A stretch of DNA of 25,541 nucleotides from a virus (lineage: Duplodnaviria; Caudoviricetes). Both the position numbers and the translations under genes were made by a program. The notes beneath the pieces are model-generated. The model made no database searches. It was not told the origin of the DNA and was given only the letters and a program-made list of their open reading frames with translations. Positions 1,639-24,700 of the stretch are shown in pieces (position 1 is the stretch's first letter; every line of letters begins with the position of its first letter). The DNA is taken from the IMG/VR virus record IMGVR_UViG_3300031977_003074, positions 1-25,541 of that record; one strand, given 5' to 3'.

Positions 1639-4600
1639 TTATGCAACCCTTACGTATAAAGTATATGTCTCAACCGTCGAGTAAGTTGGTTGAATAGTAG
1701 TACCAGTGTAGTTACCGATAAATGCACGTGAGTAATTACCAGTGAAGTCACGAGAATAGTTTCCAGTGAAGTCACGAGCGTAGTCACCAGTGTAGTTACC
1801 TGCGTAAGTTGATACACGAGTTCTGCCATAATCGAATGAGTAAGCAGAAGTACGTAGTCTTGAGTAAGCCGAGACACGTACACGTGAGAATGTATCAACA
1901 GAGTTACGAGTGTAATTACCGATGAAGTCACGCGAGTAGTTACCTACAAAGTTACCAGCGTATGCAGAGACACGGTTGCGGATGTAGTTACCTGCAAATG
2001 TGCGAGCATAGTTTCCAGTAAAGTTACCTACGAAGTCACGAGTGTAAGTACCTGCATATTCTCCTGCGAATGTACGCTGATAGTTTCCAACGAAGTCACC
2101 AGCAAACTCACGAGTGTACTGACCAGAGAAGTCACGAGTGTACTCACCCGCAAATGTGCGGTTGTAAGTTCCAGTGTATTCTCCAGCGAAGTTGCGAGAG
2201 TATGTTCCAGTGTACTGACCAGAGAAGCCGCGTGAGTAAGTACCAGTGTATTCCCCTGCAAATCCGCGTGAGTAAGTACCTGAGTAAGTCGAGATACGGT
2301 CACGTGAGTAAGACTCAACACGAGTTCTTACGAAGTTGCGAGAGTAATTACCGATGTAGTCACGAGAGTACGCACCAGTGTATTCGCCAACGAAGTCACG
2401 AGAGTAGTTACCCGCGTAAGTTGAGAAGCGAGTGCGGACATACGCTGATACACGGTTGCGAGTAAAGTTGCGAGAGTAGTTACCCGCAAAGTCGCGTGAG
2501 TATGCACCAGTGTACTGGCCAGAGAATCCACGTGAGTAAGTACCAGTGTAAGTAGATACACGGTTACGTGAGTAAGTAGAGATACGCTCACGAGTGAAGT
2601 TACGTGAGTAGTTGCCTACAAAGTTACGTGCGTAGATTCCAGTATATTGACCAGAGAAGTTACGGCTGTATGTTCCAGTGTAAGTTGAAACACGGTTACG
2701 TGAGTACGAAGAAGTACGAGTACGTGAGAAGTCACGACTGTAGTTTCCTACGAAATCACGTGCGTAGTAACCAGTGTACTCACCAGCAAAGTCACGAGAG
2801 TAAGTACCAGCGTATGTCGATGGACGTGTACGCGAGTAAGAAGAAACGCGAGTACGACTAAAGTCACGTGAGTAGTTACCAGTGAACGTGCGGTTGTAAG
2901 TACCAGTGTATTCACCTACAAAGTTACGTGAGTAAACGCCAACGTATGCAGATGGGCGAGTACGTGAGTAAGTTGAAACACGGTTACGAGTGAACGTAGT
3001 AGTGTAGTTACCAGTAAATGTACGGTTGTAAGTACCAGTGTACTCTCCAACGAATCCACGTGAGTAAGTGCCTGAGAACGTTGAAGTACGTGCACGAGAG
3101 TAAGCAGATACGCGAGTTCTAGTGTAGTTACGCGCATAGTTACCAGTGAACGTGCGGTTGTAGGTGCCAGTGTACTCACCAACGAATGTGCGAGAGTAGT
3201 TACCCGCATATGATGATGGACGTACACGTGAGTAAGCAGAAACGCGAGTGCGAGTAAATGCACGTGCGTAATTACCTACGAAGCCACGGTTATAAGTTCC
3301 AGTGTACTCACCGACGAAGTTACGGTTGTAAGTACCAGTGTACTGACCAGAGAAACCACGTGAGTAGTTGCCTACGTACTGTCCAGAGAATCCACGAGTA
3401 TAGTTACCAACGTAGTTTCCTGCGAAGTTACCTACGTAATCACCGATGAAGTTACCCGCATAGTTGCGTGAGTAGTTACCAGTGAACGTACGTGCGTAGT
3501 TTCCTGCAAAGTTACCAGCGAAGTTAGTCACACGGTCACGAGTGTATGCAGACGAACGGTTGAGAACGTATGCAGATACACGAGTACGTGCGTATGCGCT
3601 GTAACGAGTTCTAGTTGAAGTACGAGTGTATTCACCAACATAGTTACCAGTATATTCACCTGCGAATCCGCGAGCGTAGTTACCCACATAGTTTCCTGCA
3701 AAGTTGCGGCTGTAGTTACCTACGAAGTTACCTGCGAAGTTTGTGACGCGGTCACGAGTGAAGTCACCAACATAGTCAGTGATACGAGTTCTTGCGTACG
3801 CTGAGTAACGTGAACGTACAGAGTCACGAGTTGACGTACGAGTAAAGTTACCTACGTAATCAGTTACACGAGTACGAGCATATGCACTAACACGGTTACG
3901 AGTTGAATCACGCGTTGAAGTACGAGTGAAGTCACCGATGTAGTTAGTGATACGAGTACGTGCGTAAGCAGAGTTACGAGTACGTGAGTAAGATGACGCA
4001 CGAGTTCTTGAGAATGCGCCTGCGTAGTTAGTTACGCGAGTTCTTGCGTATGCAGAGTAACGAGTACGAGTTGATGTGCGAGTTGAAGTACGTGCGTAGT
4101 TACCTACGAAGTTACCAACATAATCACCAACGAATGTACGTCCGTAGTTGCCCACGAAGTTACCTACGTAATCACCGACGAATGTACGGCCATAGTTACC
4201 TACGAAGTCTCCCGCAAATCCACGTGCATAGTTACCTACGAAGTCGCCTGCGTAGTATCCAGTACGTGTATAGTATCCAGTACGTGTGTAGTCTGCAGCG
4301 TAGTTACGCGCATAGTTACCAATGAAGTTACCAACATAGTACAATGTACGAGTGTAGTAACCAGTGTTAGTAGAAACACGAGTACTGTTACGAGTGTAGT
4401 CTAGTGTTGCTGCACGGTTACGAGTATATGTACCAGTTGCAGTGTAGACGGTTGCACGAGTACGAGTGTAGTCTAGTGTTGCTGCACGGTTGCGAGAGTA
4501 TGCAACAGTAGAGACACGAGTACGTCCATAGTTCTGAGATACAGTACGTGCATAGTTACGGACAGAAGTACGAGTGTAGTATGCTACACCAGTGTAAGTT

Positions 4601-7600
4601 CCACCACCAACAGTTGACGTACGAGTCGATGTACGTGTTGAAGTACGAGTGTAGTAAGTTGTGCCACCGTAAGTAGTACGGGTATAGAAGTACAACTCAC
4701 CGTACAACCAACGTGAGTATTCTGCGAAACTAGTACCACCAGTACGTGCATAGTTACCAATGAAGTTACCAGTAAAGTTTCCTGCGTAGTCAGTACCAGC
4801 CGCAGTAGAACTTGTGTTACGAGCGTAATCACCGACGAAGTTTCCGCCTACGAAGTACTGCGGGAATGTACGGTTATAGTTACCGACGTAACTGACGTTA
4901 CGACTATAGTTACCAGTATACGTTACGCCACGAGTATAGTTACCTACGAAATCACCTGTATAGTACAATGTGCGAGTATAGTTACCCGTGTATGTTACGT
5001 TACGAGTGTAGTTACCAGTAAAGTCACCAGTGTAGTACAAAGTACGAGTGTAAGTACCAGTTGCAGTAAATGTCTGAGTACGGTCACGAGTAAACGCACG
5101 AGCGTAGTTACCAGTGTAGTACAGAGTACGAGTGTAACTTAGAGTACGAGTAGACGTACGAGTCGAAGTACGTGCATATGCGCTGTAGCGAGTACGTGTT
5201 GAAGTACGTGCGTATGCTGAACCACGGTTACGAGTATAGTTAGTAGCACGAGTACGAGTGTACGCCGAACCACGGTTACGAGTATAGTTGGTTGCACGAG
5301 TACGCGCATATTCACCAACGAAGTTACCCGCAAAGTCACCAGCGAATCCACGAGAATAGTTTCCTACGAAGTCACCAGCATAGTTTCTTGTGTAGTTACC
5401 GACGAAGTTGCGGCCATAGTTACCCACAAAGTTGCGAGCATAGTTACCAACAAAGTCTCCGGTAAAGGTAGTTGCATAGTTACCGACAAAGTTACCAGCG
5501 TAGTTACCGACGAAGGTACGTGCATAGTTACCTACAAAGTTACCAGTGAAGGTAGTAGTGTAGTTGCCTACGTAGTTACCAGCGTAGTTACCAGTGAATA
5601 GACGCGAGTAGTTACCCACGAAATCACCAGTAAAGGTAGTCGCATAGTTGCCAATAAAGTTACCAGCAAAGTTTGTGACGCGATCACGAGTGTATGCAGA
5701 ACCGCGAGTACGAGTAGAAGTACGCGCATAAGCTGAGTAACGAGTACGTGCAGAAACACGAGTCGATGTACGAGCGTAGTTACCAACATAGTTTCCTGCG
5801 AACGCACGTGAGTAGTTGCCCACGAAGTTGCGAGAATAGTTGCCTACGAAAGTACGAGCGTAGTTACCAATGAAGTTACCTGCAAAGTTTGTAACACGGT
5901 CACGGACATATGATGATACACGTGCGCGTGAGAAGATACCAGCAAAGTTGGTTACACGGTCACGAGTAAAGTTAGTTGCACGTACACGAGTGTAGTCAGC
6001 AGAGTATGCAGAAACACGAGTACGCGAATAAGTTCCCGCGTATGCCGATACACGGTTGCGTGAGTATGTTCCTGAGTATGCTGAAACACGAGTACGTGAG
6101 TAAGTACCTGAGTACGCGCTAGTGCGAGTACGAGTATAATTACGTGAGTAGTTTCCTACGAATCCACGGCTGTAGTTACCAGTGAAGTTACGTGAGTAAG
6201 TTCCCGCATAAGTTGAAACACGGTTGCGTGAATAAGTTCCAGTGTAAGAACTAACACGTCCACGAGTAAATGCGCGAGCATAGTTCCCTTGGAAGTTACG
6301 AGTGTAGTTTCCTACGAAATCACGTGCATAGGTACCACTGAACGTTGAGTTACGAGTACGTGAATAAGTTCCTGCGAAACTAGAAACACGGCCACGAGTA
6401 AAGTTACCAACGTAGTTACCAGCGAATCCACGGCTGTAGTTACCTACGTAGTTTCTTGAGTAGTAACCAGTGTACGCTGAGTTACGAGTTCTTGAGTAAG
6501 TACCAGTGAACGAAGAAACACGTCCGCGTGTGAATGAGTTAGTATATTCACCAACAAATGCACGGTTGTAGTTACCTACGAATGTGCGGCCATATGTACC
6601 AGTGTATGAAGATACACGAGTACGACCATACTCACCAGCGTAAGCAGAAGTACGCGTACGTGAGAATGCACCAGTATATTCACCGATGAAGTCACGTGAA
6701 TAGTTTCCTGCGAAACCGCGTGAGTAGTTGCCTACGTAAGTTGATACGCGAGTACGTGAATACGTTCCAGTGTATGAAGATACACGAGTACGTGCGAACT
6801 CACCAGTGTAGTTTCCTGCAAACCCACGAGTATACTCTCCAGCGAATCCGCGAGAGTAAGTTCCTGAGTAAGTAGAAATACGGTTACGTGAGTAAGTACC
6901 AGAATATGAACTTACACGAGTACGACCAAACTCACCAGTATAGTTACCTGCAAATCCGCGGCTGTAGTTTCCTACAAATGCGCGAGCATAGTAACCAGTG
7001 TACGATGAGTTACGAGTACGTGAGTAAGTACCTGAGAAAGATGATGTACGAGTACGCGAGAATTCACCTGCATAGTTACCTTGGAAAGAACGAGTATACT
7101 CTCCAGTAAATGCACGAGAATATGTACCAATGTATGCAGAGACGCGGTTACGTGCGTAAGTGCCAGTGTAAGTACTGATTCTGTTACGTGAGTAAGTTCC
7201 AGTATACGCTGAGTTACGGACACGGTTGTATGTACCAGTATAGGTAGATACACGGCCACGTGCATAGGTTGAGGTACGAGTGCGCGAGAAAGTTCCGGTG
7301 AAGTCTGTTACACGGTTACGAGTGAACGTTGACAAACGTGCACGAGAGTAGTAACCTGTAAATCCACCAGTAAATCCTTGTAGACGTACACGAGTGTAAG
7401 TAGACTGACGGTTTAAAATGTACTCGCCAGTAAACGTACGTGAGAAATTGGTGACACGGTCACGACTGTAAGTCGATGGACGTGTACGACTGTATTCACC
7501 GATAAAGTCCCCTACATAATTACCGGCAAAGTTACGACTGTAGTTACCAGCGAAATCGCGAGTGTAATTACCAACGTAATTACCTGCAAAGTCACGAGTA

Positions 7601-8487
7601 CTAGTTCGAGTAGAGACACGACTAAAGGTCGATGCGCGATCACGAGTATATGCTGATACGCGAGTACGTACGTATGAACTGTTACGAATACGCGAATAAG
7701 AAACTTCCGCAGTATTACGACGTGTGTTCAGTGCAGTACCAACTGCCTTCCATGTGCCTGGGGCCGTTGGTGCGCCTTGTGCAGATGAACGTAACTGGTA
7801 AGAACCAATTGCACCCGCAGTTGCACGTAGAGTTTTAATTCTTTGACCTAGAGTGTACTGAATCTGTGCGTCAGTCATCTCTTGGAAACCGTCGAAGTTT
7901 CCGCTACCGTCGTACTTAGTCGCGACCGGACGAACTGCATCGATTGCAGTCATGTTGGTGCGCAAGTAGATATTGTAGGTGGTTGATGAACCGTCGCCAC
8001 GAGTGTCTTGGAAGACATTCGGGATGAAGACAGTGTAATCAACGCCTGGGCTTGATGATGCTAGTTTGAATGTACCTACGTAATCATTTTGTGCAAGATT
8101 ACCTAGAACACGGTTAGCAAGTGAATTCAAATCCCCGTCTACCATTTCGTAGAAGCCAGGGTTTGTTGTATCGTAGTATCCTACTGGACGGACAAAGTCT
8201 GCACCGGATTCATCTGCTGGACCACCGTTTTGATAAACAGTAGTAGTAGTTGTACCGGAAGTGATTTGTGATGCTGGGTGAGTTCCCGTCGCTTCATTAA
8301 AGAAGGTATCGACGAATGTACCGATGCTCACATCACCTGTTAGACTAATGTGGCCGACATCACTTGAAGGTGCTGCGGCTAGTGCTTGTCCCACTGCATA
8401 CGCAAGATAGTTTTCTTCCGTAGGAGTGAATTCCTGTAGGTCACCATTCGAATTTTTGATTTTTAATGGGATGCTCGATGCTGACAC
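1639..8487 (-). CDS. Giant 2282-aa putative virion fibre protein: ~263-aa N-terminal domain, 2000-aa Y/F-x-R/G-x tetrapeptide repeat insert, and a short C-terminal strand
   Basis: Single 6.85-kb open frame; GTG start preceded by GAGAG; late promoter upstream; terminator downstream; follows a tail fibre chaperone gene. The virion role is inferred from context. Confidence 0.85.
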   Translation of the reverse strand: MSASSIPLKIKNSNGDLQEFTPTEENYLAYAVGQALAAAPSSDVGHISLTGDVSIGTFVDTFFNEATGTHPASQITSGTTTTTVYQNGGPADESGADFVRPVGYYDTTNPGFYEMVDGDLNSLANRVLGNLAQNDYVGTFKLASSSPGVDYTVFIPNVFQDTRGDGSSTTYNIYLRTNMTAIDAVRPVATKYDGSGNFDGFQEMTDAQIQYTLGQRIKTLRATAGAIGSYQLRSSAQGAPTAPGTWKAVGTALNTRRNTAEVSYSRIRNSSYVRTRVSAYTRDRASTFSRVSTRTSTRDFAGNYVGNYTRDFAGNYSRNFAGNYVGDFIGEYSRTRPSTYSRDRVTNFSRTFTGEYILNRQSTYTRVRLQGFTGGFTGYYSRARLSTFTRNRVTDFTGTFSRTRTSTYARGRVSTYTGTYNRVRNSAYTGTYSRNRISTYTGTYARNRVSAYIGTYSRAFTGEYTRSFQGNYAGEFSRTRTSSFSGTYSRTRNSSYTGYYARAFVGNYSRGFAGNYTGEFGRTRVSSYSGTYSRNRISTYSGTYSRGFAGEYTRGFAGNYTGEFARTRVSSYTGTYSRTRVSTYVGNYSRGFAGNYSRDFIGEYTGAFSRTRTSAYAGEYGRTRVSSYTGTYGRTFVGNYNRAFVGEYTNSFTRGRVSSFTGTYSRTRNSAYTGYYSRNYVGNYSRGFAGNYVGNFTRGRVSSFAGTYSRTRNSTFSGTYARDFVGNYTRNFQGNYARAFTRGRVSSYTGTYSRNRVSTYAGTYSRNFTGNYSRGFVGNYSRNYTRTRTSAYSGTYSRTRVSAYSGTYSRNRVSAYAGTYSRTRVSAYSADYTRVRATNFTRDRVTNFAGIFSRARVSSYVRDRVTNFAGNFIGNYARTFVGNYSRNFVGNYSRAFAGNYVGNYARTSTRVSARTRYSAYARTSTRTRGSAYTRDRVTNFAGNFIGNYATTFTGDFVGNYSRLFTGNYAGNYVGNYTTTFTGNFVGNYARTFVGNYAGNFVGNYATTFTGDFVGNYARNFVGNYGRNFVGNYTRNYAGDFVGNYSRGFAGDFAGNFVGEYARTRATNYTRNRGSAYTRTRATNYTRNRGSAYARTSTRTRYSAYARTSTRTSTRTLSYTRTLYYTGNYARAFTRDRTQTFTATGTYTRTLYYTGDFTGNYTRNVTYTGNYTRTLYYTGDFVGNYTRGVTYTGNYSRNVSYVGNYNRTFPQYFVGGNFVGDYARNTSSTAAGTDYAGNFTGNFIGNYARTGGTSFAEYSRWLYGELYFYTRTTYGGTTYYTRTSTRTSTRTSTVGGGTYTGVAYYTRTSVRNYARTVSQNYGRTRVSTVAYSRNRAATLDYTRTRATVYTATGTYTRNRAATLDYTRNSTRVSTNTGYYTRTLYYVGNFIGNYARNYAADYTRTGYYTRTGYYAGDFVGNYARGFAGDFVGNYGRTFVGDYVGNFVGNYGRTFVGDYVGNFVGNYARTSTRTSTRTRYSAYARTRVTNYAGAFSRTRASSYSRTRNSAYARTRITNYIGDFTRTSTRDSTRNRVSAYARTRVTDYVGNFTRTSTRDSVRSRYSAYARTRITDYVGDFTRDRVTNFAGNFVGNYSRNFAGNYVGNYARGFAGEYTGNYVGEYTRTSTRTRYSAYARTRVSAYVLNRSSAYTRDRVTNFAGNFAGNYARTFTGNYSRNYAGNFIGDYVGNFAGNYVGNYTRGFSGQYVGNYSRGFSGQYTGTYNRNFVGEYTGTYNRGFVGNYARAFTRTRVSAYSRVRPSSYAGNYSRTFVGEYTGTYNRTFTGNYARNYTRTRVSAYSRARTSTFSGTYSRGFVGEYTGTYNRTFTGNYTTTFTRNRVSTYSRTRPSAYVGVYSRNFVGEYTGTYNRTFTGNYSRDFSRTRVSSYSRTRPSTYAGTYSRDFAGEYTGYYARDFVGNYSRDFSRTRTSSYSRNRVSTYTGTYSRNFSGQYTGIYARNFVGNYSRNFTRERISTYSRNRVSTYTGTYSRGFSGQYTGAYSRDFAGNYSRNFTRNRVSAYVRTRFSTYAGNYSRDFVGEYTGAYSRDYIGNYSRNFVRTRVESYSRDRISTYSGTYSRGFAGEYTGTYSRGFSGQYTGTYSRNFAGEYTGTYNRTFAGEYTRDFSGQYTREFAGDFVGNYQRTFAGEYAGTYTRDFVGNFTGNYARTFAGNYIRNRVSAYAGNFVGNYSRDFIGNYTRNSVDTFSRVRVSAYSRLRTSAYSFDYGRTRVSTYAGNYTGDYARDFTGNYSRDFTGNYSRAFIGNYTGTTIQPTYSTVETYTLYVRVA
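1699..7698 (-). repeat. Coding low-complexity repeat with 12-nt/4-aa periodicity (YTRN, FAGN, RVSA, YTGT, STRT units), plus 44-aa higher-order repeats at 6151-7074 and 2347-3270
   Basis: Seen directly in the translation. Synonymous variation between units shows the constraint is at protein level. Confidence 0.95.
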
Positions 8488-8603: not shown

Positions 8604-9071
8604 TTAGAGAGACGGATGTTCTGGCCAGACGACCTGAGACGGATGCATAATAACAGACATATCTAGTGTAGAAGGTAGGTCACGAAGTTCTTGACGGTAT
8701 GCAAGAATCTCATTTGTTTTCTCTTCAGAGAGTGGTGAGTCTGGTAACAATGCCCAATCTGTCTGTGCAATACGCATATTTCTTTCGGTGCGTATTTCAT
8801 TTAAGATGATCTCAGTATCCCACACCCATTCAGATCCATTCCAATCTGCATGAACGTTTGGTCTTTCTGGCACTTCTACAAACTGATACAACTCATTGTC
8901 CCAGACGCGAGTATTCATATACTCAGATACAGACAAACCTTCTAGGTCATAAATTCTATGGACAGTATGAACGATATCTAAACGTTCACCGTCTTCTGGG
9001 TATATACCAGAATCCATGTCAGTTCTTAGTATTACGCCATTATCATTTATCAAGGCGACTTTAGGGTGCAT
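8604..9071 (-). CDS. Phage tail fibre assembly chaperone-like protein
   Basis: C-terminal 'IRTERNMRIAQTDWALLPDSPLS...AYRQELRDLP...WPEHP' matches the R..RN..L..TDW..LPD.P...YRQ.LRDLP...WP signature of phage tail assembly chaperones. Confidence 0.85.
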   Translation of the reverse strand: MHPKVALINDNGVILRTDMDSGIYPEDGERLDIVHTVHRIYDLEGLSVSEYMNTRVWDNELYQFVEVPERPNVHADWNGSEWVWDTEIILNEIRTERNMRIAQTDWALLPDSPLSEEKTNEILAYRQELRDLPSTLDMSVIMHPSQVVWPEHPSL

Positions 9072-10283: not shown

Positions 10284-11180
10284 TTAAAACTCCAATAAGG
10301 GTACACGTGTATCGTGCAGTTTATCTTGTCCCTTCAATTTTTCTAATTCCTCAAGGAGAATGGCCATCCATTCGATAAAACCCTTCCCCGCGTCTTTTTG
10401 ACTTTCTTTCAAAGCAATACCAGATATACGTACGTCGTACATATAAGTAGGATACTTTTCATCATGAGCAAACATTTTCAATTCACCTCGCTCATGCGCG
10501 TCTTTTAGTTCAAGGTATTGAAGAGTATCTTCACCTACCGTCAAACCTTTAAATCTGTAGGGTAAGACTTTCCGCGACATGAATACAAGTCGCGTACTTA
10601 ATTCGTCAATACCCATGCTGTGTTGTAAAGTTTTTATGTAACGTTTGAACATATCCACTTCACTCACAGTGATGTCCGGCACATTGTCTGCAACTAACCT
10701 ACCGTCTGCAAGTTTGTTCCAGTCTTCAACTACTGCCTGTTGTTCATACTTTCTAGTGAGATTGACAGGGTCTTCATGTGGCCTAACCGGATCTTGACTT
10801 CTATCTCTAAGACTATGATCCTGAGAGGTAAGATTGACTTGATTGAACAAGATCACCGCGTCGGGTGCGTCTTCACTCTCTGCCAGTTTCTGATATAACT
10901 TAACCCCTCTTGGAGTTAGGTAATCATCCCCGTCTATCAACACTGCATATGGTACACCATCAGCATCAAATATGTCAAGGAAAGAATTCTTTCCTGTTGC
11001 AGCGGTACCGTCGCTGTCTGTTACAAAATAACGAACTTCGTTTTCCTCACAGTAGGTTATCGCTTGTTGACGAAATTCTACGTGAGTTGTATTTATTATT
11101 ACTGTCGTCTTATCTATTGGTAGTGTTTTAAACTGTCGCTTTAGTGCATAAATGTTGTGGCTAGATAAAACATAAAACAT
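10284..11180 (-). CDS. Putative GT-A (GT2-like) glycosyltransferase
   Basis: 'TVIINT', 'SDGTAATGKNSFLDIF', 'VLIDGDDYLTP' (DxD) and 'GED' motifs; paralog of 19168..20046. Confidence 0.75.
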   Translation of the reverse strand: MFYVLSSHNIYALKRQFKTLPIDKTTVIINTTHVEFRQQAITYCEENEVRYFVTDSDGTAATGKNSFLDIFDADGVPYAVLIDGDDYLTPRGVKLYQKLAESEDAPDAVILFNQVNLTSQDHSLRDRSQDPVRPHEDPVNLTRKYEQQAVVEDWNKLADGRLVADNVPDITVSEVDMFKRYIKTLQHSMGIDELSTRLVFMSRKVLPYRFKGLTVGEDTLQYLELKDAHERGELKMFAHDEKYPTYMYDVRISGIALKESQKDAGKGFIEWMAILLEELEKLKGQDKLHDTRVPLLEF

Positions 11181-11183
11181 ATA

Positions 11184-12638
11184 TTATAACAATCCTAATC
11201 GAACTCTTCTTGCGCTACCCTCATAGATATCAATTCGTTCGTTGGTGATTTCCATGTGGTCTGTACCAGTTAGGTCAGTACCAATATCTATCTGTCCGGT
11301 AACTGTTGCGTTAGACAGTTCAACTCCATTAGCGGTAACGGTAAATGGATTCACACCACCTGTACCATCGGTCGCAGTTGGAGTGACAATTTTAAATGTG
11401 TCTGCAGCGACAACGAAGTCCGCAGTAGTTCCGTCATTGGTAAACTCCAATCCAGAAACATATGGATCTGTAGTAGTACCTGCGGTCAAGTTCAATTGCC
11501 ACTGTGCAGATACACCACCTGTTTGTGCGTCTACATATGCAGTCAGTGATTGTTCTGCTGCAGCGATGTCGCTGTCAATTTGTGCCTGAAGAGTTAGGTC
11601 ATATGCACTTATTGCAGATTGAATTAAACCGTTCTCTTCAACGATTTCAGTTCTTAGATCATCAATCGCACCAGTGATTGCAGTTGAAGTAACTTCACCT
11701 GTTTGTGGATCGCGAATGAATACCGCGTTGTCCAGTTCAGTGAGACTATTACTAATAGAGGTTATCTGTCCACCCTGAGTACTAACAGTAGAACTCAATA
11801 CTGATCTTGCGTCAGCCTCTGCATCGACACGTGCATTTAGGTCACTATCAACTGAGATAAGTGATGCAGACACACTGTCTAATGCCTGAGACAATACAGT
11901 AATACCGGAATCGTTTGTATCGATTCGAGTCTCTAGAGTTTGTAACGCACCACCAACAGCCTCGATAACGTCACTGTCTGAGATTGTGATACCACTGTCA
12001 ATCAACTGTTGTAGGTTGACATCAAGTTGAGTTACGTTGGCAGCAACGATACTTAGATCACTGTCTGTTGCGTCGATACGTGTGTATAGATTGCTTACCG
12101 CGTTTGCGTTCGCAGTGATACGAGTATTTGTAGATTGATCTAACAATATCAGTTCAGCGTTGACTGAATCTACTATTCCAGCAAGAACAGTGATCGCGCT
12201 GTCATTCGCCTCAATCTGAGAAGTCAGTGTAGTGTTTGCGTTAGCGATTGCAGAAGCAAGTAGGTCTGAGTCAATACCACCCAAGACCATACTGTCAAGT
12301 TGTGCTTGAGTTGCAATCTGTGCCTGAGCAAGTACAAGGACACCCGAATCAGTTGCATCGATACGCGAAGTCAACTGAAATATAGCGGACGCGTTCGCAG
12401 AGATATCTGAATCTAGATATGAGACATCAGTCTCGATAGTGAACTGCTGAAGATATTCCTCATTGATTACGGTCAAGAAGTAATCAGAGTCAAGGACATT
12501 GTTAATGATGTTAGTAATATCAGCCGAGTCAATAGTGATATTACCAACCGCAGAATCCAATCCCGCAAAGTTCTGGTTGATCTTTAGTATCGCTGCGTTG
12601 ATGTTATCCGCAAGATTTACTACCTGTATGTTACTCAT
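11184..12638 (-). CDS. Coiled-coil tail fibre protein with a gpJ-like (DUF1983-like) C-terminal region
   Basis: N-terminal 'KINQNF' anchor; long heptad-like A/I/L/S/D/T-rich stalk; 'SAQWQLNL...YVSGLEF...ADFVVAADTFKI' resembles the gpJ central-fibre domain; ends in RIDIYEGSARRVRLGLL. Confidence 0.7.
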   Translation of the reverse strand: MSNIQVVNLADNINAAILKINQNFAGLDSAVGNITIDSADITNIINNVLDSDYFLTVINEEYLQQFTIETDVSYLDSDISANASAIFQLTSRIDATDSGVLVLAQAQIATQAQLDSMVLGGIDSDLLASAIANANTTLTSQIEANDSAITVLAGIVDSVNAELILLDQSTNTRITANANAVSNLYTRIDATDSDLSIVAANVTQLDVNLQQLIDSGITISDSDVIEAVGGALQTLETRIDTNDSGITVLSQALDSVSASLISVDSDLNARVDAEADARSVLSSTVSTQGGQITSISNSLTELDNAVFIRDPQTGEVTSTAITGAIDDLRTEIVEENGLIQSAISAYDLTLQAQIDSDIAAAEQSLTAYVDAQTGGVSAQWQLNLTAGTTTDPYVSGLEFTNDGTTADFVVAADTFKIVTPTATDGTGGVNPFTVTANGVELSNATVTGQIDIGTDLTGTDHMEITNERIDIYEGSARRVRLGLL

Positions 12639-19167: not shown

Positions 19168-20046
19168 TCAAGAGTCTTTCAAGAAATTATTTAACCACAC
19201 TTCTTTCTGGTGATGGTTCATCAAAAGATCTTTGTAAATCACTGGAAGTTCGTAGGGGCTACTGCGCCATTCTTGTACATGAAGACGCGCTTCCTCTCGC
19301 ATTGGTTCTAGGTAATCATAGTAGTCATGCACTTTCTGTGCACTACCTTCGGTGGTCCTATCAATACAATACATGTCACTGGACATTGTCAGAAAATAAC
19401 AGAGATTACCTTTCTGGTGTTGTCCTAGTAGTTTGTACGTGTAGGCATGATCCTCACCATTACCGATGTCTTCGTTCATCTTAAACTGCGCAGACTTACG
19501 ACTCTGCAACATAATGAAGTCAATGGATACGGGACGTTCGTCGATGAAGAGGTGACTCTTCTGTGGTCCCATATTGGGATGAGGTGCAGCCATTGATGTA
19601 CCCCACACACTCGCGTGATACTCATCGTTGACCCACCAGTAATGACCTGACTCCAGTGCCCAGTTACAAATACAGTCACACGGTACCACACCCAAAACAT
19701 CAATGCATGGGAAGTGTTTGACGTGATTGTATAGAGACTGTAGATACGAGGGATACAGAAAGTCGTCACCGTCAATCTGTGAGACGAAGTCCGCATCACT
19801 CTCTAGGAATACCTCCAGACAAGCGTTCTTACCCTTGCCTGGCTTTCCGTTACTTTCTGTATTGACTACACGAAACGGTTGATCAAGTTCTAAGACCTGT
19901 TCATAGTACCCCTCACGAGTACTATTGACAACGATCACAACCTCCCACTCAACCGGAGTTATCTTAACGACTCCCTGAACAGATCGAATCAACCGCTCCA
20001 ACTTTGGGACATCGTTTGATGTCAACAGAGTTGTCATGAGTTTCAT
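19168..20046 (-). CDS. Putative GT-A (GT2-like) glycosyltransferase
   Basis: 'VVIVVNS', 'ESNGKPGKGKNACLEVF', 'SQIDGDDFLYP' (DxD) and 'GED' motifs; start overlaps the stop of the upstream oxygenase gene. Confidence 0.8.
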   Translation of the reverse strand: MKLMTTLLTSNDVPKLERLIRSVQGVVKITPVEWEVVIVVNSTREGYYEQVLELDQPFRVVNTESNGKPGKGKNACLEVFLESDADFVSQIDGDDFLYPSYLQSLYNHVKHFPCIDVLGVVPCDCICNWALESGHYWWVNDEYHASVWGTSMAAPHPNMGPQKSHLFIDERPVSIDFIMLQSRKSAQFKMNEDIGNGEDHAYTYKLLGQHQKGNLCYFLTMSSDMYCIDRTTEGSAQKVHDYYDYLEPMREEARLHVQEWRSSPYELPVIYKDLLMNHHQKEVWLNNFLKDS

Positions 20047-20600
20047 TATTCTGCCTCGAAGAAAAACGTCTGGAATAATCGACTGTCTTGTGGAGTTGTC
20101 CCGAAGCCAGGGACTACGCTTCTATGATAATACATTGAGTCGTAAATTACAAGTCTATTGTATACGTTTTTCGCTTCTGCGACGATGTCCCAATCACTCT
20201 CATCGTGTTGGTAATCATTGAAGTCTATAAATTGATCTGAGGAATGTTTCATGATTCCGGTAGGTCTATGTCGATAAATCGCGGTACCAGAATCAAGTGG
20301 AGCATTCGGAGTTAGATACAACACCGCCGCATGAGACATTTCATCGTGGTGAATCCATGTCTCTGCGGTTTCGGTCGTATATTGAAAAGACGTGTTGTAT
20401 TTGTCAATAGGAAAGTACGTGATGCGTTTTCCTATGATGTTTTCAAAACTTCTCTTAAGTCCGTCGATGTAACCACCTGCATTGGTGCATGGTGCTGTAC
20501 GTAGGCCCGGATAGTTACCTGAAACATTAAATGGTAAGGATAATGCAAAATCCCGAACTGAATCGGGATCTGCATAAAAATCATCAATAATTGTGAACAT
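20046..20600 (-). CDS. 2OG-Fe(II) oxygenase superfamily protein (DUF6445-like)
   Basis: 'IIDDFYADPD.VR', 'YPGLRT', HxD motif (WIHHD), 'AAVLYLTP...GT', 'NRLVIYDS..YH' distal His, and C-terminal 'RLFQTFF' Arg. Confidence 0.8.
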   Translation of the reverse strand: MFTIIDDFYADPDSVRDFALSLPFNVSGNYPGLRTAPCTNAGGYIDGLKRSFENIIGKRITYFPIDKYNTSFQYTTETAETWIHHDEMSHAAVLYLTPNAPLDSGTAIYRHRPTGIMKHSSDQFIDFNDYQHDESDWDIVAEAKNVYNRLVIYDSMYYHRSVVPGFGTTPQDSRLFQTFFFEAE

Positions 20601-20623: not shown

Positions 20624-23600
20624 TTACAACTCCCCAAGTCGTACTCTTCGAGCAGCACCTTCGTAAATATCAATACGTGTAGGTGAGAACTCAATACGAT
20701 CTCCGGTATCAGCAGTATTTAGAATACCACTAAGATCGATTATACCACCAGTAGTAGAACCTGTGGTACGTGTACCAGTAGTGATCTCTTCGAACACTGC
20801 ATCCGTTGTAGTGTCGATGCGATTCTGTGTAGAACGCCAGATACGTCCAGTGTTGATGTGCCACCAAATATCACCTTCGTAAATAGTGTCCACAGTACGG
20901 AACTGTCGAATAGCAGCAGATGCAGTCGAACTAATGTTTGATGGTAAGTTGGTCGATGTGTCGAACAATACCGCGTTACCGAATCCACCAACTGGACCCT
21001 GCGCACCCGTTGTACCAGCGACACCCGTCGCACCCTGTGGACCATCTGGGCCAGGTTGTCCTTGACCACCTTGAGGGCCCGGAGAACCTTGTGGCCCGTC
21101 TGGTCCGTCCGGACCTGTTTGTCCCTGAACACCCTGTGGTCCAGTATTACCTTGGGCACCTTGAGGACCGTTATTACCTGTCTGACCTTGGATACCTTGA
21201 GGACCAGTCGAACCCTGAGCACCTTGGGGACCATTGTTACCAGTCTGCCCTTGGATACCTTGTGGTCCAGTATTACCTTGGGCACCCTGCGGTCCATTGT
21301 TACCTGTTTGGCCTTGGATACCCTGTGGTCCAGTATTACCCTGAGCACCTTGAGGACCGTTGTTTCCGGTTTGTCCCTGAATACCCTGTGGTCCGGTATT
21401 ACCCTGAGCACCCTGTGGTCCATTGTTACCAGTCTGACCTTGGATACCTTGTGGTCCGGTAGAACCCTGAGCACCCTGTGGTCCGTTATTACCAGTCTGA
21501 CCTTGGATACCCTGAACACCTTGAGCACCTTGTGCGCCTTGAGGTCCGTTATTACCAGTTTGTCCCTGCAATCCCTGTGGACCAGTCGAACCCTGAGCAC
21601 CCTGCGGTCCATTGTTACCAGTTTGTCCCTGAATACCTTGAGGACCAGTAGAACCCTGCGCTCCTTGAGGACCATTGTTACCCGTTTGACCCTGCAATCC
21701 CTGTGGACCAGTTGAACCTTGTGCCCCTTGTGGGCCATTGTTACCAGTCTGTCCCTGCAATCCTTGTGGTCCGGTAGAACCCTGAGCACCTTGAGGACCA
21801 TTGTTACCCGTTTGACCTTGGATACCTTGGGCACCAGTCGAACCTTGCGCTCCTTGTGGTCCATTGTTACCCGTTTGTCCCTGAATACCTTGAGCACCAG
21901 TTACGCCCTGCGCTCCTTGTGGTCCATTGTTACCAGTCTGACCTTGGATACCTTGAGGACCAGTAGAACCCTGCGCTCCTTGAGGACCGTTGTTTCCGGT
22001 CTGTCCCTGCAATCCTTGTGGACCAGTTGAACCTTGGGCACCTTGAGGACCGTTGTTTCCCGTCTGACCTTGTAGACCCTGAGCACCTTGTGCACCTTGT
22101 GCACCAGTAGGGCCAGGAGTACCTGTAGTACCTTGGATACCCTGAACACCTTGTGGTCCCTGCGGTCCTTCTGGTCCGTCTGGACCTTGTGGGCCAGGTT
22201 CACCTGTATTACCTTGCGGTCCCTGCGGGCCAGGAGTTGTACCCGCTGGACCTTGTGGGCCAGGTTCACCCGTATTTCCTGTTGGACCCTGTGGGCCAGG
22301 TGTCGTTCCTGCTGGACCTTGTGGGCCAGGTTCACCTGTTGCACCACTTGGACCTTCTGGTCCGGTCTGACCTTGAATACCTTGGGCACCAGTTACACCC
22401 TGAGCACCAGTAGGGCCAGGTTGTCCTTGTAGACCCTGCACACCAGTTGCACCCGTAGCACCTTGTGGACCAGCAGGGCCAGGGTTACCTTGAAAACCTT
22501 GAGCACCATCTGGTCCAATTGGTCCTTGTGGTCCTTCAGGGCCAGGATCTCCTTGCAACCCTTGGATACCCGTTGTACCTTGTGGACCCTGCGGTCCTTC
22601 TGGGCCTGGGTCTCCAGTAAGACCTTGTGCGCCTGTAGTTCCTTGTGGACCCTGCGGTCCTTCTGGGCCTGGGTCTCCAGTAAGACCTTGTGCGCCTGTA
22701 GTTCCTTGTGCACCTTGTGGTCCTTCTGGGCCTGGGTCTCCCTGCAACCCCTGAATACCTTGTGGTCCAGTAGCACCTTGTGGTCCTTCAGGGCCAGGAT
22801 CTCCCTGCAATCCTTGGATACCTTGTGGTCCAGTAGCACCCTGCGGTCCTTCTGGGCCTGGGTCTCCCTGAAGTCCAGTAATACCCTGTGGTCCAGTAGC
22901 ACCCTGCGGTCCCTCTGGGCCTGGGTCTCCCTGAAGTCCAGTAATACCTTGAGCACCCTGAGAACCTTGTGGTCCTTCAGGGCCTGGGTTACCTTGCAAT
23001 CCTTGAATCCCCTGCGAACCTTGTGCACCTTGCGCACCAACTGGGCCAGGGTTACCCTGCAATCCTTGGATACCTTGAGCACCCTGAGAACCTTGCGGTC
23101 CTTCTGGGCCTGGATTACCCTGAAGACCCTGAATACCTTGCGAACCTTGTGCTCCCTGTGGTCCCTCTGGGCCAGGATTTCCTTGAAGTCCAGTAATACC
23201 CTGAGCGCCTTGTACACCTTGAGGACCAACTGGGCCTGGGTTCCCTTGAAGACCAGGAATACCCTGAGCACCTTGGGTACCTTGAGGTCCAGTCTCGCCA
23301 GGGTTACCTTGAAGACCCTGAATACCTTGGGCACCTTGGGCACCCTGTGCACCGACTGGGCCTGGGTTACCTTGAAGACCCTGAATACCCTGAGCACCTT
23401 GGGTACCTTGAGGACCAACTGGACCACCTCCACCTTGTGGACCGACTGGACCGATAATACCTTGAGGACCAACTCCACCGTCTGGACCCTGTGGACCAAG
23501 ATTACCTTGACCACCAACCGGACCTTGTGAGCCAACAGAACCCTGTGGTCCCAAAGGGCCCTGAGCACCCTGAGAACCCGTCACACCTTGTGGGCCTGGA

Positions 23601-23965
23601 GCACCCTGAGGGCCAACACCACCAATATCCGTATTCTCAATCAGAGTATTGATGTTTTGTACTTCGGTACTTAAAGTTGATGTTGTGGTGTTTAGATTAG
23701 TGATTAATGTATCGTGTGTATCAACACGTGCGTCTAGTACATTAATATCGTTTTGGTCGGATAGATTTGCAGCATTGACTGCTTCGGTGACTGCTTGGTC
23801 AACGTAGTTAGATAGAAATTCAGCAGTAATGCCACCTTCACCTGCAATGTCAAGAAGGGCGTAGATTTCTGCGAAGTTGGCATTGATTTTTTCACTGGCT
23901 TGACGGAGCGTATCACCTGTACCGTCGTTTACTGCACCACCAGTGTTAAGAGTCTGTCGAGTCAT
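20624..23965 (-). CDS. Collagen-like tail fibre protein with a T4 gp9/gp10-type N-terminal anchor
   Basis: N-terminus '[33 protein letters not shown]'; about 880 aa of Gly-X-Y; C-terminal globular region ending [17 protein letters not shown]. Confidence 0.9.
20981..23623 (-). repeat. Gly-X-Y collagen repeat (about 290 triplets) built from 21-aa/63-nt units
   Basis: Units such as [21 protein letters not shown] and [21 protein letters not shown], with two GTTP interruptions. Confidence 0.95.
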
Positions 23966-24025: not shown

Positions 24026-24700
24026 CTACTTAAGACTGTAGTCAATGAATTCATCGTCAGAACCACCACCTGCGCCCTGAGATTCGGTAGGGTAGTCACC
24101 TTCTTTAGATACCTTGTAGAGTCTCTCTACGATTTGTGATGAAGGGTTCTGTTGTTCAACAAACTCTCCACGAGTGTATGTAACCGGACCATCTACAAAA
24201 GACGTAGGCCAGTCTGTACCTTCTGGAACGAATAGATCGGTGTCTGGTATGTATTGAGTACCATCCCAATATGCCTGATAGACTCTGAACGTGTATATAC
24301 CATATACCGCTGTTCGTTCTACCCAATAGAATTGTGGAGATGTTGTAGAGTATTCGAATGTGGCGGGTTGTGGTGGAGTTGCACTGTCACTGTCAGTACC
24401 ACCCCCTGCACTATCGCTATCATTTATAACACCACCCGCAGAGTCTCCTTCTGTGATGAAATAGAGAGTCGAGACTTCAGGAGTTAATGCGTCATACTCT
24501 GCCTGATTACCCGTCCACATTTTAATGTTCAGGGCGCCAGGGTTCTGGTTAAGTATCTCTGAAACACCACCAAGAGAACCACCAGAAAGTTCGACGAAGT
24601 TTTGGTTGATCTGGTCAAATGCAGATTGTAACGGATTTATCTCAGTCCCGTCAATCTGCGTGACGATCAATGCATCATCAGAATCAAGTAACTGCGCCAT
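24026..24700 (-). CDS. Small fibre-like / baseplate-associated structural protein
   Basis: 'QINQNFVEL' anchor-like motif; 'KMWTGNQAEYDAL....TLYFIT' motif common in phage minor tail and fibre proteins; G/D/S linker; beta-rich C-terminal domain. Confidence 0.65.
   Translation of the reverse strand: MAQLLDSDDALIVTQIDGTEINPLQSAFDQINQNFVELSGGSLGGVSEILNQNPGALNIKMWTGNQAEYDALTPEVSTLYFITEGDSAGGVINDSDSAGGGTDSDSATPPQPATFEYSTTSPQFYWVERTAVYGIYTFRVYQAYWDGTQYIPDTDLFVPEGTDWPTSFVDGPVTYTRGEFVEQQNPSSQIVERLYKVSKEGDYPTESQGAGGGSDDEFIDYSLK

Follow-up and report, generated by a model that had tools for sequence, protein, structure and literature searches.

The predicted hairpin gene and its surroundings

The stretch of DNA analysed here (25,541 nucleotides; hereafter the window) forms part of the record of a T4-like virus, and the runs that contain the stretch are marine. 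Every gene in it lies on the minus strand. The gene block comprises baseplate wedge genes, a gene for a DUF4815 protein, a tail-tip fibre, a collagen fibre with a gp9/10 N-terminus, two glycosyltransferase-like genes, a DUF6445 gene and a tail-fibre chaperone gene. Directly downstream of the last of these is a very long ORF, whose product we call the hairpin protein (Table 1). Gene context makes it likely that this protein sits on the virion.

Table 1. Positions, in the window, of the hairpin gene, its parts and the adjoining chaperone gene
Feature	Residues	Position	Strand	Remark
ORF encoding the predicted giant hairpin protein	2,282 residues	1639-8487	minus
N-terminal base domain	1-262	7702..8487	minus	conserved
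Outgoing arm, period-4 repeat	263-1204	4876..7701	minus	from pairing register and self-alignment
Irregular distal region (tip and bulges)	1205-1321	4525..4875	minus	register shifted by one relative to the arms
Variable bulge, outgoing arm	1222-1236	4780..4822	minus	7 amino-acid changes in the run X4 allele
Tip segment RWLYGELYFY	1259-1268	4684..4713	minus
Predicted two-residue turn	Tyr1262-Gly1263	4704-4699	minus	from register analysis
Variable bulge, returning arm	1296-1302	4582..4601	minus	4 amino-acid changes, same contig
Returning arm	1322-2263	1699..4524	minus	complementary to the outgoing arm in a single ungapped register
C-terminal strand	2264-2282	1639..1698	minus	conserved; found in both the short and the long members of the family
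Tail-fibre assembly chaperone gene (PF16778)		8604..9071	minus	directly upstream of the hairpin ORF

Searches with the whole protein, the base, the short family members and the knob described below gave no credible match in Pfam, PHROGs or the PDB sequences. For the base, the atlas yielded unnamed viral clusters of 310–328 residues (0.90–0.91). In 50,697 annotated phage records, the protein has a single relative: it belongs to phage C48C1 (Kyanoviridae; the record names no host) and is labelled hypothetical. A literature search, with subscription papers outside its coverage, found no published description of either the hairpin family or phage C48C1; the paper on phiTE (PMC11972413) yielded nothing of relevance. 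We considered a cyanophage identity and found no support for it: the psbA family is absent from all five related records, two of which are more than 90% complete; this evidence is weak.

Across the family, residues 1–262 and the last 19 residues are conserved and flank an insert of 24 to more than 3,000 residues; the C-terminal strand appears to complete the base. At the small end of the range, P0018–P0137 comprise 78 complete short forms of 292–478 residues that have the same base and last strand and hairpins of about 12–100 residues a side (almost none in P0127). At the other end are giant members of up to 3,893 residues (C48C1, which is L038:15001-25044, P0003, P0004, L093 and L101), in which several globular domains are looped out of the returning arm only. 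P0003 and P0004 also have FG-GAP repeats in the base, and one insert of C48C1 holds a 46-residue tandem duplication.

Arm pairing and the predicted position of the turn

The original prediction held that the midpoint of the insert falls in a unique aromatic segment. That segment indeed reads RWLYGELYFY, with Gly1263/Glu1264 at nt 4701–4696. W1260 is the only Trp in residues 264–2263 (the protein's other Trp is residue 246), and the chance of a single Trp lying within 4 residues of the pairing centre is about 0.005. The 10-mer also has the worst period-4 fit among all 10-mers of the 2,000-residue insert, as judged with a profile that was built without residues 1205–1321 and slightly favours that region. 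The three irregular stretches expected to flank it are present, at residues about 1208–1215, 1225–1233 and 1292–1301. Even positions carry Arg, Tyr, Gly, Phe and Ser, and odd positions carry small residues (Thr, Asn, Ala, Ser, Val), a split that we read as the two faces of a ribbon. Trp1260, Leu1265 and Phe1267 depart from this rule, as they would put large hydrophobic side chains on the small-residue face. A contig of run X2 spans 4462–4813 with zero differences; X2 is possibly the source sample, hence this contig is not independent. Contigs from other runs also span the tip.

Do the two arms pair with each other, and in which register? The mutual information between the first half and the reversed second half peaks at i + j = 2524 and 2526. 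A pair score trained on nine relatives from other clades, which ranks the expected register first in 5/5 test proteins, likewise gives i + j = 2526 as the best antiparallel register here. Shuffling the C-arm in blocks of 4 or 12 residues left the observed score at z = 18 and 16, respectively, with 0/1000 shuffles near it. Gapped self-alignment placed residues 263–1204 against 1322–2263 as 942 pairs with no gap, the inner 117 residues being irregular and shifting the register by one. The arm pairing is therefore independently centred on RWLYGELYFY, as the register derived from the two ends had predicted. Locally, the picture is less uniform. The true register came first in 10 of 17 windows of 60 residues; over residues 384–744, which consist of 44-residue repeats, alternative registers score equally, and the true one ranks 2–18 in 6 of the 17. 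Simple Arg–aromatic counting does not pick out the register everywhere. The register is unique over about 460 residues adjoining the tip, and near the base.

The same centring is found in relatives. Of 54 complete relatives (850–2,282 residues), 50 have their pairing centre at the midpoint derived from the ends, as do 41 of the 45 proteins outside the training set. Here “centred” means a pairing sum 2–4 below the end-derived sum, and 41 different lengths are represented. The arms of these relatives are thus equally long. The 54 proteins include near-duplicates, and five more, missed by the anchor pattern, were omitted. The four exceptions are L004, the diverged L033, the short L110 (off by 4) and C48C1, whose outgoing arm is continuous and whose returning arm has six inserts looped out of it. 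Compared with L002, L004 is missing 24 residues from one arm only; this imbalance may be real or may reflect a repeat collapsed in assembly. Seven of the 50 centred proteins have an inner part of 388–1,068 residues that follows no single register; in the two inspected, a C-arm insert again accounts for this. The pair score breaks down on distant, Arg-poor members (P0005–P0013 and P0015–P0017) and on L033. An off-centre segment in homologues, which the original prediction had named as evidence against it, was found in L093, L101 and L038. There, a domain insert in the C-arm displaces the tip, and pairing resumes across the insert; off-centre tips were met only in relatives of this kind. In the short forms (n = 77), the least repeat-like 12-mer has a median relative position of 0.49 and lies within 0.4–0.6 in 45.

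A turn at Gly1263–Glu1264 had been proposed. Its placement within the segment stood; the exact residues are more likely Tyr1262–Gly1263. We calculated how well each residue is predicted by partners across the ribbon, conditioned on the residue's own neighbours and cross-validated over 21 proteins. For large-face residues, the most informative partners sit at offsets 0 and −2 (0.089 and 0.090 bits); for small-face residues, they sit at −2 and −4 (0.084 and 0.077 bits). Because offset −2 is common to both faces, we take it as the direct pair. The sum falls by two along the diagonal of the non-hydrogen-bonded face in model hairpins (PMC10096425); by geometry, the diagonal on the other face should raise it. 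Those designed peptides resemble the present case in their two-residue Gly turn and in the aromatic–cation diagonal contacts that arise from a right-handed twist; they are only 12 residues long and served here for the geometric rule alone (PMC10096425). Together, offset −2 and the diagonal rule for twisted hairpins give Gly–Arg, Tyr–Tyr, Phe–Arg and Arg–Ser as direct pairs. The direct register is thus most likely two lower than the Arg–aromatic register. This displaces the turn by a single residue, to Tyr1262–Gly1263, and the Gly1263–Glu1264 turn was dropped.

With a tip sum of 2525, Leu1261:Glu1264 would close the turn, followed by Trp1260:Leu1265, Arg1259:Tyr1266, Ser1258:Phe1267 and Tyr1257:Tyr1268. 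Parity fits as well: with two residues in the turn, the Arg/Tyr face comes to lie on hydrogen-bonded pairs, which is what the arms require. On this register analysis, the chain probably turns at Tyr1262–Gly1263. AlphaFold models of the tip were both weak (mean pLDDT of 40 from a single sequence and 34 from a 13-row gappy alignment). Both leave Tyr1262 and Gly1263 outside a strand, at pLDDT 25–52, and in the second model no other part scores better than the tip segment (pLDDT near 50). The better model breaks also at Gly1274–Gly1275 and Gly1294–Gly1295, as in a meander, so the modelled turn is not specific.

Variability and exchange at the tip

Comparison of the tip among homologues revealed the hypervariability that the original prediction had associated with receptor binding. 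In 57 pairs of proteins with base identity above 90%, the median identity was 32% at the tip and 93% in the proximal arm. The drop was smaller for bare tips (L001-L014: 58% for the tip vs. 82–93% for the arm); it is among knob-type relatives that variability is strongest and exchanges are clear. Close bare-tip relatives have a loop of 7–14 residues that differs in all six lineages, preceded in all six by Tyr-x-Arg-hydrophobic and followed by aromatic-Tyr/Phe-Thr-Arg. In 14 bare-tip proteins, the positions no more than 12 residues from the centre are enriched in Trp (83-fold), Met (34-fold) and Pro (17-fold).

Many other relatives carry at the pairing centre a knob of 80 residues, with a Trp, a Tyr-x-Arg-Gly motif and a terminal Tyr; L051 carries two. 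The atlas held nothing above 0.83 for the knob. Its exchange can be followed at the codon level. The DNA of L013 and L021 is 97.7% identical through codon 888, and the match resumes at codon 961; the knob in between (codons 889–960) has been cleanly replaced. The L021 tip is 87% identical to that of L035, whereas the bases of these two proteins are only 64% identical. On a tree of the bases, bare and knob tips are intermixed, with L031, L073 and L086 positioned among knob bearers. A scan of metagenomes with the tip region of the present protein returned six loci of 37–51% identity and no protein with the same tip.

The knob also occurs in other tail proteins and is thus a mobile module of such proteins. 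In L010, it forms a tandem pair in a small protein. In L019:5881-9378 (also in L013 and L020), a second, non-homologous protein of 1,165 residues, with a different N- and C-terminus, has a mirror repeat with the knob at its centre (residues 648–730), and chaperone-like genes lie on both sides of its gene. In the window itself, the C-terminal part of ORF 24026–24700 (24095–24373, minus strand) gave a weak knob match, with E = 0.009 in the fourth iterated-profile round, a best reversed control of 0.89 and a profile–profile comparison that was not significant. In this phage, a knob may reside on another, small tail protein, with the hairpin itself ending bare.

Variation within the phage's own population has a different focus. 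Among the allele differences listed (13 further rows stand beside them), W1260F and Y1268F, both conservative, are the only changes in the 10-mer, and none affects YGEL. The 11 amino-acid changes of one allele, which runs X4 and X5 each show on a single contig, all lie in residues 1224–1235 and 1296–1302. These two bulges face each other across the arms, and 63 bases of 855, at these sites, account for 22 of the 39 nucleotide differences of this allele (p about 2e-15). That the changes occupy facing sites supports pairing close to the tip. The variable surface reaches 30–40 pairs from the turn, and since the bulges vary more than the 10-mer, they may be the host-specific surface.

Comparison with known fibres and possible roles of the tip

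Because relatives both vary and exchange this central spot, the tip is likely to be an exchangeable host-contact module. Our preferred reading, which we hold with some reserve, is that the central turn of a very long antiparallel β-hairpin, in a fibre that is likely tail-associated, is the exchangeable end that contacts the host. That the hairpin forms within one chain is very probable; that the distal region touches the host is, from its sequence behaviour, somewhat better supported than its opposite. In such a protein, the outgoing arm would be made first and the chain would turn at Tyr1262–Gly1263. The returning arm would then zip back, bringing Arg, Tyr, Phe and Gly to one face and small residues to the other, and the last strand would finally complete the base. 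On a straight course at 3.3 Å a residue, the tip could be as far as about 330 nm from the base, where Trp1260, Leu1265 and Phe1267 would stabilise the turn and form an exposed aromatic patch suited to sugars or to a membrane protein. A more far-reaching reading, less probable than not, is a receptor-binding fibre made of a single-chain, two-stranded ribbon of up to about 330 nm that needs neither trimer nor metal, that changes length through mirrored gain and loss of repeats under a pairing code, and whose mid-gene turn is a recombining specificity cassette (a bare aromatic loop or one or two knobs) deciding which surface the phage takes hold of.

The closest parallel is the needle of the T4 long tail fibre, gp37 (D10–D11). 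Its tip, which makes up the distal pole, is an insertion in the stem, itself inserted in the base, and binds LPS and OmpC (PMC6957217). As in that needle, the hairpin protein has a base of N- and C-terminal parts (which here seem to form one domain) with the stem set into it, a small tip at the turn (here an aromatic loop or the 80-residue knob at the pairing centre), and outgoing and returning strands of equal length, here judged from sequence complementarity and arm lengths. Both occur in a T4-like gene context with a chaperone gene beside the fibre gene. The differences are equally clear. The stem measures about 50 residues a side in gp37 and about 1,000 here, a twenty-fold difference; the arms here, unlike those of gp37, are low-complexity repeats matched by a residue-pairing rule; and seven iron atoms bound by His hold the gp37 trimer together, whereas residues 251–2282 of the hairpin protein contain no His. 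The hairpin protein showed no sequence match to gp37 or to any PDB chain. Profiles PF07484 and PF21939 (collar, gp10 C-terminal) did not match the base, in searches of which one had a silent control, and the atlas gave the gp10 C-terminal cluster for the base only at 0.79, which is the chance level. The protein appears to work like the gp37 needle but does not belong with it, having no His-iron sites, no detectable collar domain, a far longer stem and a repeat pairing rule.

Could three such chains nonetheless form a six-stranded needle of the gp37 type, with the tip aromatics buried as a core that closes the barrel rather than exposed? The nested layout is that of gp37 (PMC6957217). The uniformly small face of the arms could line a barrel, the gene upstream encodes a chaperone of trimeric tail fibres, and the position of the turn is compatible with this arrangement. 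An insert devoid of His, however, rules out iron sites of the gp37 type, and the base failed to match the collar and gp10 C-terminal profiles, which weighs little given the silent control. We consider a trimeric needle possible but doubtful.

A second alternative concerns the tip alone. It could be purely structural, a folding nucleus or a register-setting cap that varies as it is unconstrained, with host contact made elsewhere, by the Arg/Tyr face of the shaft, the bulges below the tip or the inserted domains. The ambiguous registers of residues 384–744 mean that something must set the register. A Gly turn with Trp1260:Leu1265 next to it would correspond to how designed hairpins that fold fast are built. 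Moreover, the allele changes in the 10-mer remain aromatic, the six close bare-tip relatives share the residues that flank the loop, and loops and turns tolerate change for structural reasons alone. A cap, on the other hand, would need no 80-residue knob, let alone two of them (L051) or an exchange of knobs between distant lineages, and the register is already unique by the tip and near the base. We thus regard a purely structural tip as rather unlikely. A folding nucleus had also been part of the original prediction. It stays plausible as a turn with an adjacent hydrophobic pair, not as a conserved sequence: any nucleating role cannot depend on these particular residues because unrelated loops, knobs and the Trp-to-Phe allele replace them. 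Such a role is compatible with the data: mid-arm repeats allow wrong registers, and during synthesis the returning arm has its earliest chance to pair at the tip.

The arms might instead pair between two chains, or the repeats might form a solenoid, the central segment then being a linker or bulge. Covariation cannot separate pairing within a chain from that between two antiparallel chains, and the weak models give short strands with several breaks. Against both versions, pairing runs to within two residues of the centre and the two ends are conserved parts of one base even in the forms of 292–478 residues; a solenoid also leaves a single mirror register over 942 pairs unexplained. Either arrangement is improbable. 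That the central position is due to chance or to assembly can be practically dismissed, for although repeats are prone to misassembly and L004 has lost residues from one arm only, the centre is kept across 41 different lengths, the shuffle tests speak against chance, and contigs from other runs span the tip.

A further comparison is with the β-hairpin tentacles of tail-fibre chaperones such as Alteromonas phage A5 gp9. These are hairpins of variable length that extend from a conserved body, within the host-recognition module of a marine phage (PMC10579305). As described there, the tentacles differ in being at most about 88 Å long and non-repetitive, in belonging to a chaperone with a helical body and in having no exchangeable tip domain (PMC10579305). 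The present analysis adds the face-resolved register with its shifted turn, tip exchange at the level of codons, and allele data for this phage. If our reading is true, the host range of a widespread group of marine T4-like phages could be read from a short window in the middle of one gene. The family would then also offer natural hairpins of about 12 to 1,000 residues a side for studying how register is found. The corrected turn and the pairing table define a small construct (residues about 1200–1325), and phage C48C1 provides a complete, named genome as a starting point.

Two further features of the window concern the fibre genes and their neighbours. Glycosyltransferase-like and oxygenase-like genes flank the fibre genes (339–1076, 10284–11180, 19168–20046, 20046–20600 and 1–342); GT2 and DUF6445 were matched among these, and the rest were judged by eye. 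Their products might modify the Ser/Thr-rich face of the hairpin or the collagen fibre. The latter (20624–23965, minus strand) is a collagen-like fibre of 1,113 residues with the T4 gp9/10 N-terminal motif, and its C-terminal end resembles that of ORF 11184–12638.
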